Source of the DNA: an uncultured Chloroflexia bacterium
GTDB lineage: Bacteria; Chloroflexota; Chloroflexia; QHBQ01; JADMIH01
NCBI GenBank assembly: GCA_963797095.1
Contig: CAWCNY010000003.1
Location: 896,001-960,000 of the forward strand
Direction: 5' to 3'
Length of the DNA: 64,000 nt
The translations under genes were made by a program, and so were the position numbers. Under the pieces are notes generated by a model. It did no database searches, was not told the origin of the DNA, and worked only from the letters and a program-made list of their open reading frames with translations. This document shows, one piece after another, positions 1-17,511 of the stretch (positions within the stretch are counted from its first letter, which is position 1; each line of letters opens with the position of its first letter).

Positions 1-818
1 TCGTAGGCGTTCGAGTCCTGGCCGCCGTCCGCCTTGGTGCGGTGGACCAGCCGAAGGTAATCGCGTTCCACCAGGCTTGCCTTGAGGCGGTGCAGGTAGG
101 CGGGCGTGTAGCCTGTGAGGGCGGCCATGCGCATGATGCTGGGGTAGGGGAGGGCGGTGTCCCACTGGTAGGAGAAGATGTAGGCCACGAACCACACCTG
201 CTGGGGGGTCATGCCGAGGCCCGCGCTACAGGTAAAGAGGGCGCGAGGCACCGCGGCCACGCCATAGCGCGTGATCACCCTGCCATAGCGCGCCACGAAG
301 CTGGTGTCGCGCTCCGACCTCTCCAGCTCGTTCAGGGATGCCCAGGTGTCCTCGGTCTGGTCGGTGGCTCCCGCCTGTGATGCGTGCTCCCTGGTAACGG
401 GCACGCCTATAGCGGGGTTGCTCATGCCTGCGCTTTGCAGGTCTTTGCGCTGCTCGATGATGCACGCTTCGAGATGGCCGAACAGGGGCGCGAAATCGTA
501 TGCGTTGGATTCCTGCCCGCGCTCCTGCGATACGCGAGGGTAGACCAGGAGGTAGCCCATCTCGCGTAGCTCGTCGCTGTAGCGCTGCAACTGGCGCTTG
601 CTCATGCCTGAGCAGCGGGCCATTACGCCGAGGCTTGGGTAGGGAAGGTCCTCGTCCCACTTGTGAGATAGGATGTAGGAGATGAACCATATGTGCTGAG
701 CATACAGGTCGAGCTTGCTGCCAAAGTGATAGAGCGCCGAGGGGAGGGCCGCGATCCCGTGCTGTAGGATCACCCTCCCGAAGCGGGCAGCGAAGCTGGA
801 TCTTCCTGAATTTGGCAT
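1..818 (-). CDS. Putative replication initiator with two tandem DnaD-N/HTH_36-like winged-helix domains (runs off left edge; absent from ORF track)
   Basis: Hand translation from ATG at 818 (AGGAGG 7 nt upstream) is open to position 1: MPNSGRSSFAARFGRVILQHGIAALPSALYHF...WDEDLPYPSLGVMARCSGMSKRQLQRYSDELREMGYL...GQESNAYDFAPLFGHLE, then a linker, then a second copy SFVARYGRVITRYGVAAVPRALF...WDTALPYPSIMRMAALTGYT...GQDSNAY. The YPS-x-HTH-...-N-x-Y-D-F-x-P-L pattern resembles DnaD N-terminal and phage/plasmid initiator wHTH domains. The ORF is well supported; the function is inferred. Confidence 0.75.
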   Translation of the reverse strand, partial: MPNSGRSSFAARFGRVILQHGIAALPSALYHFGSKLDLYAQHIWFISYILSHKWDEDLPYPSLGVMARCSGMSKRQLQRYSDELREMGYLLVYPRVSQERGQESNAYDFAPLFGHLEACIIEQRKDLQSAGMSNPAIGVPVTREHASQAGATDQTEDTWASLNELERSERDTSFVARYGRVITRYGVAAVPRALFTCSAGLGMTPQQVWFVAYIFSYQWDTALPYPSIMRMAALTGYTPAYLHRLKASLVERDYLRLVHRTKADGGQDSNAY

Positions 819-838
819 AAAACATCCTCCTGTACCTC

Positions 839-867
839 TTGACAGGGGGATGGGCCGGTGCTACAAT
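839..867 (+). promoter_or_regulatory. Sigma70-type promoter antisense to the rep leader
   Basis: TTGACA(839-844)-N17-TACAAT(862-867) with TG at the extended -10 position; no credible plus-strand CDS follows. Confidence 0.8.
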
Positions 868-873
868 GCGTTT

Positions 874-963
874 GAGCCTACATTGTGCAGGTGCTCCTCC
901 CACCAAGAGGGCCACCACTACAGAACCTTCAAGACCTGACTGTTACCAGCAGTCGGGTTTTTT
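874..963 (+). ncRNA. Candidate counter-transcribed antisense RNA (ctRNA), ~90 nt
   Basis: Bounded by the 839-867 promoter and the 931-963 terminator; internal hairpin GGTGCTCCTC-ccaccaa-GAGGGCCACC; 5' end estimated. Confidence 0.6.
931..963 (+). terminator. Intrinsic terminator of the candidate ctRNA
   Basis: AAGACCTGACTG-ttaccag-CAGTCGGGTTTT plus T tract; the non-Watson-Crick pairs are G-U only on the plus strand. Confidence 0.75.
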
Positions 964-1113
964 GTTGGTTCCGCGTCTGCGGTTGTAAAAGGGGAACGGG
1001 GCTATCGCGTCTCCCATTCCTGTAGATTTGCTAAGTCATTGTCTCTCCATGTTGGCTGTTGGCCGCGCAACCTGTTTGCCGAAAAAAAAGTACACGAAAA
1101 ACTCCCATGCCTA

Positions 1114-1143
1114 TTGACAGGGAGCCTGTGACCATGCTATATT
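1114..1143 (+). promoter_or_regulatory. Second sigma70-type promoter antisense to the phd-rep transcript
   Basis: TTGACA(1114-1119)-N18-TATATT with extended TG; the -10 box overlaps the imperfect palindrome TATATTGA-gg-TTGCGCAA-TCAATATA (1138-1163). Confidence 0.6.
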
Positions 1144-1149
1144 GAGGTT

Positions 1150-1242
1150 GCGCAATCAATATACGGCTACAGTGCCCCTGCAAGGGCCCTAGTGGCGGAA
1201 CCGGAAGCCTCTTAGACTGCAATCTTCGAGGTTTCACTATTT
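1150..1242 (+). ncRNA. Possible second small antisense RNA
   Basis: Follows promoter 2; small hairpin CCC-tgcaa-GGG, then GAAGCCTC...GAGGTTTC (1204-1235); layout parallels the first unit but the U tract is weak. Confidence 0.35.
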
Positions 1243-1485
1243 AAGCCGCCCCTTTGTGGGTGCGTGAGGCGCGTTTTCTGCCTCCATCAAGTCTCGTTTG
1301 CTCTCGGTATATCTCCCTCTACCTCCGGCTTCGTGGTACGCACTTGCCGGGCGGTGCCTCTAGTTGCTGCTCAGGTCCGGCTGTTGCCATGCCTTTCTGC
1401 GGGTAGGCCTTCGGGACCTTGTCTTGCCAAACTGCAATTTGACACGACATATCCTTTCGTACAGATCCCCGATTGAGGACGGCAT

Positions 1486-1719
1486 TTAGCCATCAGTGCC
1501 GGTAGCCTGCTGCTCCGGCTCCTGGGGTTGTCCCAGCTTCTCTAGCTGCTCCAGGCGTTCGACTATCGCGTCGTAGTGCTCGGCGTCGAGTACGACGAAC
1601 CTCTGCCTTCCCTTGACCACCAGCACGGGACGGCCTTTGGAAGCCTGTTCCAACTGCGGACCGGGGTTCATTCGGAAGCTCTTGTAATCAACTACGTCTC
1701 TCAACTGTACCTGCGCCAT
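1486..1719 (-). CDS. Phd/YefM-fold antitoxin-like DNA-binding protein (no adjacent toxin)
   Basis: 77 aa; VVDYKSFRMNPGPQLEQASKGRPVLVVKGRQRFVVLDAEHYDAIVERLE follows the Phd/YefM pattern; GGAGG RBS. Confidence 0.75.
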   Translation of the reverse strand: MAQVQLRDVVDYKSFRMNPGPQLEQASKGRPVLVVKGRQRFVVLDAEHYDAIVERLEQLEKLGQPQEPEQQATGTDG

Positions 1720-1922: not shown

Positions 1923-1940
1923 TTTTTGTCGCGACAAAAA
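1923..1940. promoter_or_regulatory. Perfect palindrome TTTTTGTCGCGACAAAAA (parS-like candidate), copy 1
   Basis: Loop-less 18-bp palindrome with an identical copy at 17492-17509. Confidence 0.5.
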
Positions 1941-2018: not shown

Positions 2019-5000
2019 CTAGAAACCCGGCAGGCAGCCCGCGAATGGATGGTGGTTGGTCGCTCCTGTGCCTGTGAACGAGCTGACAGCCAGGTTGCCA
2101 TTGAGTTGCCCGTTAGCGAAGGTGAGCCTTGCCAGGGGTGCCAGCAAGCTCCCCTGCATCCCTATGTTCGCCATTGTGAGCGTGGTGGCTTGTGGGAAGT
2201 TGTACAGCACTTTCTCTCGTGTGGTGCCGTTGATGCTGATGCCGAAGTTCGCCAGAGCCAGGGCAGTACCATCCACGTTCACCAGCACCGTAGAGCCTGC
2301 CGGTGCATTGATCGTCAAACTGGAGGCTCTTGAGAGGTTGGCCCCTGCGATGTTGAAGACATTCAGGTTGGGGCTGGTGCCGGTGAGGGTGTACTGGTTG
2401 TACTGCCAGACGATTGTGCCGTTTGTGGGGAGTGCTGCCCATGAAGTAGAAGCGGAGCGCAGATACTGCCCGGCGGCATCGAAGTCGAGCACGCTACCCT
2501 GGCGCTTGCTGCCATGCGGGAAACCGACGTTGGCGAAGGTGCCTGCACCCTCATACACGGCGTTGCCATTGGCGACCTGCCCGTTAGCGAACGTGATATT
2601 CGCGCCACCAATCAGATCGTCGCGCGTACCCTCGGAGTTCGACAAGGCGCTCCCTATGCTGTAATTGGCAATGGTAATATTGCCTCCGGCGGCCACGCGG
2701 CCCTCTGTCTGTGAGTTGGCGGCGTTGAGAGTGCCAAGCACGAACAGGTTGAAATCGGATGCCAACTCCAGTGGTGTGCAAGCTCCCACCGGGGTGCTTG
2801 TAGGTGTGGGGGTAAGGGTGGGGGTGAGTGTCGGTGTTCTGGTGGCCCTGCCTGTAGCGGTTCGTGTAGGCGTTCTGGTGGTGGTGCTGGTCCGTGTAGG
2901 CGTGAGCGTTCGCGTAAGTGTAGGGGTTCGTGTGCTTGTGGGCGTTCTGGTTGAAGTGGTGACTTGTGTGTTTGTTGGAGTGTAAGTGAGCGTATTAGTG
3001 GGTGCAGTGGTAGGTGTGTTTGTTGGGGTGTTGGTGGGTGAATAGGTGGCCGTGTTGGTGGGTGAATAGGTGGCCGTGTTGGTGGGTGAATAGGTGGCCG
3101 TGTTGGTGGGTGTATTTGTCGGGATGCTGGTGGTAGTGGGAGTACGGCTTGGTGTGGCGGTTGCAGAGGGAGTTGAAGTAGGAGCGGTTGTTGAGGTGAA
3201 GGTCGGTGTTGCAGTATGGCTGGGTGTGTTGGTGGGTATGGCAGTGTTTGTTGCGGTTGATGTGGGCGTGGACGTAGGGGTGCCGGTCGGCTCAGGAACC
3301 TGAGTGTTGGTAAAAGTAAGTGTGGGCGTGGCGGTGGCAGTAGGGGTATCCGTGGGTGCGCTTGTAGATGTGCTTGTGGGTGCAGTTGTAGGCGTGGCCG
3401 TCGCGAGTGGGTCAATGAGGATGATGGGGATCGTCTGGGTGCTGCCGTTATCCAGGAATCCGCTGTCCACAGCGCCGCCCACAAGGCCATCCTGCTGGCC
3501 GTTGAGCATGGCATAGTAGTCCTCGCCACGCCCGGCCAATTGCAGGGTCACAGGCTCCTGTATCGGGCCGAATACCCAGCCTCTGCCGTCAGCGCCCCCG
3601 AACCACACGCTGTTGGGGATCTCGGTCAGCACCTGGGAACCGTCGTAGCCAAGCCTCCGGCCCGCACCATCCACGACCAGCGTATTCACAGGGTCGCTGA
3701 TCGCCGCCCAGATGCTGCCTGCATCGATGCGCGCCAGCCCCTGCGAAATGTCCTCCGGTTGGTAGTTTAGGGTCAGCGTACCCAGGATGGCCTTTTGTAC
3801 GTCCAGGTTGTAGGGGAGGTCTGTGTGGCCGGTCTCACCTTGCGTATTTACGCCTTTGGCGAACGGCCTGAGCGTCACGCGGGAATCGCCCACAAACTGG
3901 TCGCGCGAGGAAACCAGGGGCACCGTGGTGTCGCCTCCGTTGGCGGCGCGCTTGTCTTCGTACCAGACCTCGTTTGAGCCGGGCAGATGCGCGATCGTTT
4001 CATCGAAGCGGACAGGCCAGCAGTTGGCGCAAATGATCGGCCCCGTATGTTGAAGGGTGCTGACCGGCGTATTTCCATCCGTGCCGTAGATATCCGTGAC
4101 CTGAGCCTGGTTGGTGAAGGCGTTGGGGTCGCCGTTAGCACCCGGCAGGTCCAGCCCGTCGTTCAGGTCAAGCAGCAGGTCATTGCGGCTGTCGGGGTCC
4201 TGGTTGACATTCTGGGGGCCTGAGCCTGTATCGAGGAAATCATAGGTTGCCAGGAGGGCGCGTGCGGTCGGCACGTACTGAGTTATGAACTTCTGAGGGT
4301 CGGGGTGGCCCGATCCATCGTCAATGGTAGCAAGCGATATATTGATGTCAGGCCCGGTGACAACCTGGCCCTTGAGGACCTTCTGATAGGCGCTGTTGAC
4401 GATCTTGCTGAGCACAAACTGGAAGGCAGGCTCGACGCCCCAGTTGTTGTGCAGGGGGTTCCAGGCCTTGGAAGCGCCGCGATTGGGCACGCCTATCATG
4501 ACGAAGTTATTGATAGGGGGGAGCCTGTTCGTGCCATCGTACAGGCCGTTGTAGGCGTCGCTCTCCAGGTAGGTGCGCACCACCAGCCCCCCGGTGCTGT
4601 GTGCGATCACATCAACCGAGTCGGGTGGAACTCCGTTGTGGTTGGCTGCCCACGCTTGGGACGCTTGCCGCAGGAAGACGCCCAGGTAGTCGACGCCATA
4701 CCGGTAGTTGCCGCTGCTGATGCCCGCGGCGGTCAGTCCGCTGATCTGCCCATCGGGGGTGCCGTCGGTAGGGCCGGGGGGTAGCCGCCAATCGTAGTTG
4801 ACCACCCACAGGTCCTGCCCCTGCACGTAACCGATGTTCTCGAAGGTCCGGATCAGGTCGTCGTAAACGTGGGAGAGGGGGTCGATCTGCAATTGGGAGG
4901 GCGGCACTCCCCTGTGCATGAGCCAGGGCAGGTCGTTGCTCGTGTCAGCGGCGTAGGTGGCGCCAACACCCGGAACGATCAGCACGGGGTGGCGGTGCGT

Positions 5001-6095
5001 GAGCAGAAAGCCGAATGCGCGACCTCCATCCCGCCTACCAATGCCGACAATCTGGCCCGCATCGTTCAGCCCGACGTAGGGGATACCGGAGCAGCCCAGG
5101 TCTTCCCAACCGAGGTTGGGGTCGATCAGGTCCTTCAAGATCTTTACTTCGCCGTTCGACCAGATAAGATACGAATAGAAGCTTGGGGTACTTGGATTAG
5201 TTACATATCCCGCTATAAGCCCGGAATCGTTGATGCGCAACGATGATGGAAACCCATCTGTGTACATGCCAGGTGGCAATTCCAGAGGGGTCATTACCCC
5301 GTTCTGCCAGTGGAACGGCACTTTATCGGCGGGATCATAGTCTACGGTGGAGGAATATCCAACTATCTCCCCTGCGTTGTTGATGTCGAAAGCATAGGAA
5401 TTTATGCCGCCAAGCGTACCGAGGTTGGTCGCGGAGAGCGAGCCTGCGCTCCAGAGTGTGGCTGCTATATCATCGGGGCCGATGTCATAATAGCTAGCAC
5501 CCGCGATGTCACCCGCATCGTTTATCGCCCAGCCTTCGCTGAGGCAGTAGCCTCCATTCAAACCCGGTAGGTCAATGTATTGGCCGTCGTGAAGCAGGAA
5601 ACCACCACAGCCTACGAGGTCTTCACCTGGCTCCCCCACTATGTCCCCGTCGTCGTTGATCGCTTGCGGGACGAAGAACTGGCCGTCCGGTAGTTCGGGG
5701 AGCTCGCTTAAGGTGCCGTTGTCCCAGAGCATGCCCATATAAGTAGTATCAGGCAAGGTGATGTGACCTACTATCTGGCCGACGTTATTGAAGGCTACAG
5801 GCTCGAAAGTGTGGTCATCCGGATCAAGGTCGATGAATTCGCCGTTGCGCCAGAGGAAGGGGAAATCATCGGCAAGGTATCGATGGTAGACACCGATGAT
5901 CTCACCTTTGTTGTTGATCGCATAAGGGATTACATCTTCTCCGAGGTTAACGATGTCGTAAGGTGCGTTTGATGCCGCGTGCGCTACCGACCGGTCCGGC
6001 CCTGACCAGGGCTTGCTGAGAGAGAGGGGCAGTAGCGCCGACAGCAGCGCTACCAGGAGTGAAACCCTGCGAAAGAGCGAGCGAGACTTTTCCAT
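2019..6095 (-). CDS. Large secreted modular protein: HAF repeats + alpha/beta-hydrolase (lipase/LCAT-like) + Thr/Pro linker + choice-of-anchor A domain
   Basis: Signal peptide [18 protein letters not shown]; repeated A(I/F)N(N/D)xG(E/Q/D)IVG...W; [27 protein letters not shown] motifs; C-terminal FNLFVLG...EGRVAAGGN...YNFPQAT...GSLLAP; start at 6095 follows AAGGAAGG. Confidence 0.85.
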
Positions 6096-6328
6096 TTGAT
6101 CCTTCCTTTGGTGATTGCTTTGGGATAGCACCGGTTACCGGGCCAGCGCCGGTTACTGGTATATAACCTACCAAGCGTTCCCAGATCGTTCCCACGTCGT
6201 TGGGCCCGGGATGTTCTTCACCCCAAATCCCCCTATATAAATAGCGGGGGCATTCGAAGAAAGCCAAAATCGCGGCCAGGCCGCGATTTTGGCTGTTTTA
6301 GGGGCAGATTGCACCCGCCTGGTCCGAA

Positions 6329-17489: not shown

Positions 17490-17511
17490 GATTTTTGTCG
17501 CGACAAAAATC
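17490..17511. promoter_or_regulatory. Perfect 22-bp palindrome GATTTTTGTCGCGACAAAAATC (parS-like candidate), copy 2
   Basis: Read directly; lies between convergent genes. Confidence 0.5.

Follow-up and report, generated by a model that had tools for sequence, protein, structure and literature searches.

The gene analyzed here, rep, lies at the left edge of the window, by which we mean the whole stretch of 64,000 nt under study (G000:C3:896001-960000; a window position is the contig position minus 896000). It starts with an ATG at window position 818, preceded by an AGGAGG site, and the minus-strand frame 818..3 stays open up to the window's left edge. On the genome contig the frame continues to a stop at C3:895154, about 850 bases past the left edge of the window, which bears out the original prediction, made from the window alone, of an ORF without a stop inside it. 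The gene, the parts of its protein and the DNA elements embedded in it are as follows:

G000:C3:895154-896818, minus strand: whole rep gene, 554 aa
Window 1..818, minus strand: 5' part of the rep ORF (aa 1-272), from sequence
Window 453..800, minus strand: unit 1 (aa 7-122), a winged helix of the DnaD-N type, from sequence and model
Window 1..305, minus strand: unit 2 (aa 172-287), a second winged helix, its last 15 residues outside the window
aa 74-86: recognition helix of unit 1, SKRQLQRYSDEL, with R75, Q76 and R79, from the AlphaFold2 model
aa 239-251: recognition helix of unit 2, TPAYLHRLKASL, with A240, Y241 and R244, from the AlphaFold2 model
C3:895157-895402: DnaD-C-like C-terminal domain of the protein (aa 473-554)
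C3:895571-895732: seven 18-bp sites xxTGAC-N6-TATAxx with an exact spacing of 24 bp, weaker sites continuing to 895500
C3:895450-895507: A-rich tract and degenerate palindrome GATTTGAGTC, past the array

The two units (aa 7-122 and 172-287) align without gaps, with 48 of 107 residues identical (45%, E 5e-35) and a local score of 252, while the maximum in 1000 shuffles was 50. The gapless duplication claimed for this ORF was thereby confirmed, and every one of the motif pairs quoted for it was found in the protein. The claim that the duplicated element is a winged helix of about 100 aa holds for the fold, according to the AlphaFold2 model and the DnaD matches, but not for the length, which is about 115 aa. 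AlphaFold2, run with an alignment of 114 rows, gave confident models of both units, which show identical secondary structure, and of residues 473-554, whereas the linker between unit 2 and the C-terminal domain was modelled with low confidence and is predicted to be disordered. The best structural matches are DnaD N-terminal domains, 8ojj for model residues 186-288 (Z 11.1, rmsd 2.7, 101 aligned) and 2vn2 for residues 6-130 (Z 10.3, rmsd 4.6, 110 aligned), and the C-terminal domain resembles that of DnaD with a moderate Z of 7.3. Foldseek with the whole rep model returned zero matches at E<=0.001, with DnaD ranked at the top. A profile of 39 units retrieved DnaD chains (N-terminal structures) from the PDB at E 1.4e-10 to 1e-7, and DnaD_N and HTH_36 each match 32 of the 39 units (E<=0.01). 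The focal protein itself has no DnaD_N match at E 0.1 and matched no NCBIfam model, while its paralogue in the same genome reaches 53 bits against a cut-off of 27. Two of the checks that had been proposed turned out in favour of the prediction: the HMM search did so at the level of the family, and structure prediction gave a winged helix-turn-helix fold for both units. From the resemblance of the units to DnaD N-terminal domains and the moderate one of the last domain to a DnaD C-terminal domain, the architecture of the protein is DDBH1-DDBH1-linker-DDBH2.

Two units are present in 118 of the 120 homologues listed (of 155, query included), and the other two seem truncated; the named two-unit homologues among those listed are from Chloroflexia or Chloroflexota. 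The original prediction had allowed that tandem copies might be a common and already described family. They are indeed shared by nearly all listed homologues, yet neither a tandem DnaD-N initiator nor this rep family turned up in the literature searched, mostly open-access main texts. A wider library added 132 newly listed proteins, 24 with two units, 106 with one and two without units; three-unit proteins, suggested by a first unit scan, proved to have two units on re-examination. Class-wide, matches occur in 36 of 401 genomes, but single frames with two units are confined to the order to which the window belongs; in the genus the family is present in 13 of 25 genomes. Elsewhere in the phylum, 27 of 400 genomes gave matches, and none of their frames has more than one unit. 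Single bins carry up to five or six divergent members. In a tree built without the recognition helix, from few columns and with no outgroup, all unit-1 sequences are on one side of a branch with a support of 95, a grouping consistent with one old duplication. Several one- and two-unit members (P0025, P0033, P0047, P0082, L057 and L105) carry a DnaA_N or DnaA N-terminal tail, suggesting borrowed helicase or DnaA contacts. As candidate plasmid relatives, 56 PLSDB records matched weakly and were rejected, none covering 80%; in each of five records inspected, one annotated HTH gene of 143-381 aa lies under the match. The protein looks like a plasmid- or chromid-type initiator from a family found across one Chloroflexia order, not a one-off.

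Some loci of the family show peculiarities of their own. The second two-unit rep gene of the same genome, at about 70 kb on the contig (L006, G000:C3:69688-77199), has its own array AGAA-N6-TTTA and is surrounded by genes for a VirD4-like coupling protein, two Replic_Relax proteins and large helicase-like proteins, with no parAB nearby; this locus looks like a conjugative element. At L022 / L120 and at L045 two different rep genes are divergently oriented about 7 kb apart, the second type having a spacing of 22-24 bp, no matching antisense promoter and a YdjM-like gene upstream. A gene with RecG-C/HATPase_c_4 domains adjoins most of the one-unit reps of family f15 (L087-L112). At L021 / L117 both units are encoded in one frame and the C-terminal domain in another, due to a frameshift or a long-read error.

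The repeat array is located in the linker-coding DNA of rep. The lag-24 score of this region is 43 of 72, compared with a maximum of 39 in 100 codon shuffles, and among the genes with enough linker the linker motif exceeded three shuffles each in 39 of the 41 that have two units and in 21 of the 29 that have one. Clusters of TGAC-N6-TATA are found nowhere else in the genome, and the different motif of the paralogue clusters only in its own gene. Two automatic repeat phasings failed or were inconsistent, and a joint alignment was used instead; it set the site phase without protein data (60 of 70 arrays; consensus GGTGAC-N6-TTCACC). Four loci with a visibly wrong phase (L057, L092, L107 and L122) were left out of the co-variation scan and of the unit tree. 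The sites use more than one codon frame in 34 of 56 arrays, which points to DNA rather than protein repeats, and spacings of 22, 23, 25, 47, 71 and 95 occur. Throughout the family, the array end beside the A-rich tract often has its final site, or its final two, displaced by -1 bp, which gives gaps of 47, 71 and 95.

Past the A-rich tract the family has a palindrome, GATTCGAATC, which is fixed down to third codon positions: its serine codon is TCG in 31 of 37 cases (102 of 558 in the units) and its asparagine codon AAT in 29 of 29 (42 of 156 in the units). Two close relatives have a compensated palindrome, GACTCGAGTC, and the focal copy is degenerate. The A-rich tract itself repeats AGAA-N-CA, possibly as single-strand binding motifs. 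On the basis of these sequence features, the array and the A-rich tract are likely a putative origin inside the rep gene.

Upstream of rep and beyond its 3' end the following elements were detected:

Window 839-867, plus strand: near-consensus antisense promoter TTGACA-17-TACAAT
Window 931-965, plus strand: hairpin with intrinsic terminator
Window 839..965, plus strand: candidate countertranscript RNA of ~90 nt over the rep leader (promoter, terminator, folding z -2.75)
Window 1114..1143, plus strand: second consensus promoter
Window 1486..1719, minus strand: Phd/YefM-like antitoxin gene, below the Pfam cut-off, recurring upstream of some family members
Window 1924..1939: perfect palindrome of 16 bp, TTTTGTCGCGACAAAA, a candidate parS for the ParB of this module
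Window 17493..17508: further copy of this palindrome
C3:893876-894976: parA
C3:892884-893816: P22_AR_N/ORF6C gene (antirepressor-like)
C3:891676-892812: parB
C3:891629-891644: parS-like palindrome

The antisense promoter is present in 39 of 44 two-unit loci, where shuffles gave a mean of 2.1 and a maximum of 6, and in 10 of 29 one-unit loci. In 26 aligned sequences (of 39), 5 of the 12 pairs in the terminator stem have undergone compensatory changes, and the fold of this alignment recovered the terminator stem alone; Rfam gave nothing at family thresholds for the candidate antisense RNA. The region of the second promoter (window 1114-1285, plus strand) may specify a structured transcript (z -1.8). 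The gene order at the focal locus is rep-parA-X-parB, while parA-parB-rep is common in relatives and other orders exist. Among 45 two-unit loci, parA was found within 8 kb in 33 and parB in 31, several of the misses being short contigs. The perfect 16-bp palindrome occurs on both sides of the module and related palindromes flank the relatives; it may act as parS.

Three further observations concern the surroundings. IS66 transposase copies are located near both parAB loci of C3 (L001:8105-9556 and L135:8301-9752). The palindrome CGAGGCATGCCTCG, with 16 copies genome-wide on six contigs, is probably a mobile-element end or a regulator site. The minus strand at window 2019-6131 encodes a 1370-aa, probably secreted protein; it combines a stalk rich in Thr and Pro with an ice-binding-like adhesive domain at its C-terminus.

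Is there a correspondence between the two units and the two halves of the 18-bp site? In a scan of 110 alignment columns, residue 75 was the best predictor of base 4 (adjusted R2 0.72, next 0.34), residue 79 of base 6 (0.53, next 0.23) and residue 76, narrowly, of base 5. All three are in the recognition helix, although positions 75 and 79 had been spotted by eye before this unbiased scan. The signal was seen only in the matched pairing, in which unit 1 is set against the upstream half-site and unit 2 against the downstream one: the between-class rho was 0.32 for matched and 0.06 for crossed pairing, and the matched value was above all 500 permutations. Of 29 units with Arg75, 28 have G in the site, compared with none of the 27 with another residue; for Arg79 and C the corresponding values are 18 of 24 and none of 32. 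In 38 two-unit genes, the agreement between Arg75 and G4 was complete for unit 1 with the upstream half (38/38) and for unit 2 with the downstream half (38/38), compared with 20/38 for the crossed pairing. One of these 38 rows is the same DNA as a locus of G097, and with this row dropped and L122 restored the values are 38, 38 and 21 of 38; the other pooled co-variation counts contain the shared row. The rule for residue 79 and base 6 holds in 35 of 38 genes. Focal unit 2 breaks it (Arg244 with A, not C), as do the two closest relatives. Arg75 and Arg79 go with TGAC again in the phylum-wide one-unit members L147 and L148, while in distant one-unit relatives Lys75 and Asn75 are also found with G4, so that the rule "non-Arg never G" fails outside the core family. 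A hold-out test with a family matrix was biased toward TGAC and hence was not counted as support. Taken together, the co-variation suggests that DNA is read by both units: the helix of unit 1 (R75, Q76, R79) is predicted to read the upstream half-site TGAC, and that of unit 2 (A240, Y241, R244) the downstream half-site TATA. The proposal that a pseudo-dimer may read two different sites is therefore retained as far as two different sequences are concerned, but these would be the unlike halves of one 18-bp repeat and not two separate sites.

The symmetry of the sites differs between one-unit and two-unit genes. The palindrome score, a first version of which was noisy, is 11.8 for 29 one-unit genes and 10.4, near the shuffle level, for 41 two-unit genes (p 1e-5, with no correction for kinship). 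With identical helices collapsed, the two halves agree at three or more of four bases in 8 of 10 one-unit genes vs. 3 of 23 two-unit genes. Further, 12 of 25 phylum-wide one-unit genes have palindromic arrays with scores of at least 25/30, above all five shuffles. In these sequence comparisons, the repeats of one-unit relatives tend toward palindromes and those of two-unit members are asymmetric.

When units 1 and 2 were folded as separate chains, the complex scored 0.79, compared with 0.00 for the best of three controls; of 157 solved pairs 116 attain the mark of this test, and of 215 mismatched pairs only 2 do. At least 92% of the contacts were common to the runs, with a partner pLDDT of at least 80. 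The contacts pair equivalent residues of the two units (23-190, 25-188, 44-209), and the helices 74-86 and 239-251 are absent from the listed interface residues. Thus, the units are predicted to pack via the beta1/alpha1 dimer face known from DnaD, and the fused pseudo-dimer proposed originally gains support from this modelled packing. The score may be due to the predictor having learned solved DnaD dimers, so that the result should be taken as likeness, not binding.

Based on these observations we consider it quite probable that the gene encodes an initiator of the plasmid or chromid type and that this protein arose by fusion of an ancestral DnaD-type homodimer into one chain, its units being predicted to read unlike halves of an intragenic repeat. 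Unit 1 would sit on the upstream half TGAC and unit 2 on the downstream half TATA of the repeated asymmetric site. By analogy to RepA_N and repABC, Rep protomers would coat the array and then melt the A-rich tract, the C-terminal domain would recruit the host primase or helicase, and the antisense RNA would limit Rep synthesis. If the two helices change independently, more compatible replicons would become available. It is tempting to extend this scheme: a homodimer on palindromic iterons was fused once, the helix code (residues 75, 76 and 79 to bases 4, 5 and 6) gave rise to combinatorial compatible replicons, and one of these drives a megabase-scale chromid here. This extended version we hold tentatively, its likelihood being somewhat short of even.

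The setting of the focal gene leads to a different reading of this one copy, which is compatible with the mechanism at the family level: protein and code are the same, but the copy is a dormant relic of an integrated replicon. At one hand, rep resides on a 1.15-Mb contig that also has core genes, a class I tRNA synthetase at 377 kb and GTPase matches at 645 and 1125 kb, and another parAB, of the chromosome type, is found at 192 kb of C3. The focal copy has a degenerate version of the family palindrome, and in G106 the skew minima are not on rep (145 kb vs. 170 kb; 190 kb vs. 145.5 kb). Given the degenerate palindrome and the core-gene contig, the focal copy may not fire. On the other hand, rep, parA, parB, the antisense unit and the array are all intact, and the cumulative GC-skew minimum of C3 (883-890 kb) is about 6-12 kb from the array, though seven comparable minima exist genome-wide. 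Moreover, dnaA and two canonical parS sites are on C2, while C3, C1 and C8 together have 10 of the 12 copies of the module's parS-like palindrome and 4 of 71 tRNAs. We regard a dormant relic as possible but rather unlikely.

In related genomes, five large rep-bearing contigs of three relatives have 0 of 14, 17 and 17 GTPase matches, and the genes of two rep-bearing G106 contigs map mostly to C3 and C1 (86 of 111 and 31 of 54). The neighbours of rep are genes for sugar transport, regulators and secreted proteins; integrase or conjugation genes were not detected at E<=1e-8 among 33 larger ORFs sampled from ~55 kb downstream to 30 kb upstream. The setting of rep on C3 is possibly that of a chromid, a cointegrate or a dormant insert. 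Separately, C2 carries 25 tRNA genes on one strand within 11 kb (G000:C2:1272514-1283690), typical of an acquired tRNA array.

The preferred reading, an initiator with two DNA-reading units, also has to be weighed against a protein in which one unit contacts DNA specifically and the other is a spacer, the match of helix and half-site being due to shared ancestry within one gene. Helix and array are indeed inherited together, and few changes are both independent and well supported: there are four to five coincident changes per unit on the best tree, and the well-supported independent pairs (three plus four; two plus three in a rerun) are all concordant, neither unit being significant alone. However, the crossed pairing has equal ancestry and fails, and the residue-base match recurs in unit 1, unit 2 and one-unit proteins, each of them a separate group of the tree; we consider this explanation improbable.

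We judge it very unlikely that the initiator is instead a transcription regulator with the array as intragenic operator or roadblock and no origin. HTH_36 is generic, the source labels of the homologues are helix-turn-helix proteins, and short one-unit HTH genes exist on proteobacterial plasmids, one of them beside a separately annotated rep. Against a regulator, the DnaD-like N- and C-terminal domains, the A-rich tract past the array, the DnaA_N tails of some members, the parAB linkage and the antisense RNA match RepA_N and repABC replicons. A host chromosomal helicase loader like DnaD or DnaB, suggested by DnaD being the closest fold, is hardly credible in view of the patchy distribution in genus and class, the presence in one genome of several divergent copies, all of which have an array and most a parAB of their own, and the location of dnaA on another contig.

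This candidate initiator family of Chloroflexota is of interest for several reasons. The relevant passages of a survey of Ktedonobacteria (PMC13289182) describe chromid-like contigs without a canonical Rep; here a candidate initiator, origin, antisense control RNA and centromere are named for secondary replicons of Chloroflexota. The family offers dozens of natural protein-site pairs whose specificity is readable from sequence, with the symmetric one-unit and the fused asymmetric states both alive. Thus, the route from a homodimer to a two-domain initiator and a recognition code of DnaD-type winged helices become directly testable. Last but not least, mutually compatible replicons could serve as vectors for Chloroflexota.

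Several known systems share parts of this organization. DnaD is encoded by the host in one copy, and its gene is not known to contain a cognate array, in contrast to the present family, which occurs in about half of the genus genomes with several copies per bin. Bacillus DnaD / DnaB and the family have in common the fold of both units and the predicted dimer face, and probably the fold of the C-terminal domain. The relevant passages of PMC2978336 mention tandem DDBH2 and not tandem DDBH1. In Rep_3-type initiators (RepE, pi, TrfA and RepA of pPS10), as outlined in PMC10602881, each chain has two winged helices, both of which insert a helix into the major groove of one iteron. On this outline the working principle, two winged helices on one iteron, would be shared with our family. 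Ours is a different family, however: its origin-like region is intragenic, 45% identity is retained between its units, there are still one-unit relatives whose sites are palindromic, and the Rep_3 profile matched neither the focal protein nor the 39 units.

Phage O-like initiators have origins inside their gene. Phage replication-initiation families (PHROG) match the units weakly, at E 3e-8 and weaker, while our family is tied to parAB, not to phage genes. As a phage origin or replisome organiser, 41 IMG/VR pattern matches were considered, none of which was confirmed, and the INPHARED search returned no relative; the comparison with phage replisome organisers made in the original prediction thus found no viral match.

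The closest parallels are in the layout of the replicon. In repABC replicons, as summarized in the relevant part of PMC3155836, the origin is in repC, an antisense RNA is encoded just upstream and parS is nearby. As far as that part goes, an intragenic origin-like region, an upstream antisense RNA, an often codirectional upstream parA-parB and a nearby parS are common to both, the RNA and parS of our family being candidates, whereas the p42d repC is described there as lacking iterons and our family has clear arrays and a varying gene order. RP-C and RP-C_C did not match the focal protein, and RP-C matched 3 of the 39 units with a best E of 0.0011. For RepA_N plasmids, the passages on pSK41 in PMC5703833 place Rep boxes in linker-coding DNA. 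For the Rep of pSK41 and for pPR9 with its HTH_36 variant, they describe an antisense RNA of ~83 nt over the leader and a protein that resembles DnaD in both its N-terminal and its C-terminal domain. By that account the winged-helix N-terminal and helical C-terminal domains, the boxes in linker DNA and the antisense RNA over the leader are shared. In contrast to RepA_N, the family has two N-terminal units per chain, asymmetric 18-bp sites with a period of 24 bp, ParA/ParB with 16-bp palindromes and a Chloroflexia host, and RepA_N (PF06970) was found neither in the focal protein (E<=0.1) nor among the 25 families listed for the 39 units. The rep locus resembles a RepA_N or repABC replicon in layout but fails both profile tests, and what is new here is that DnaD-type units occur in tandem, that the symmetric state survives and that the code is readable.
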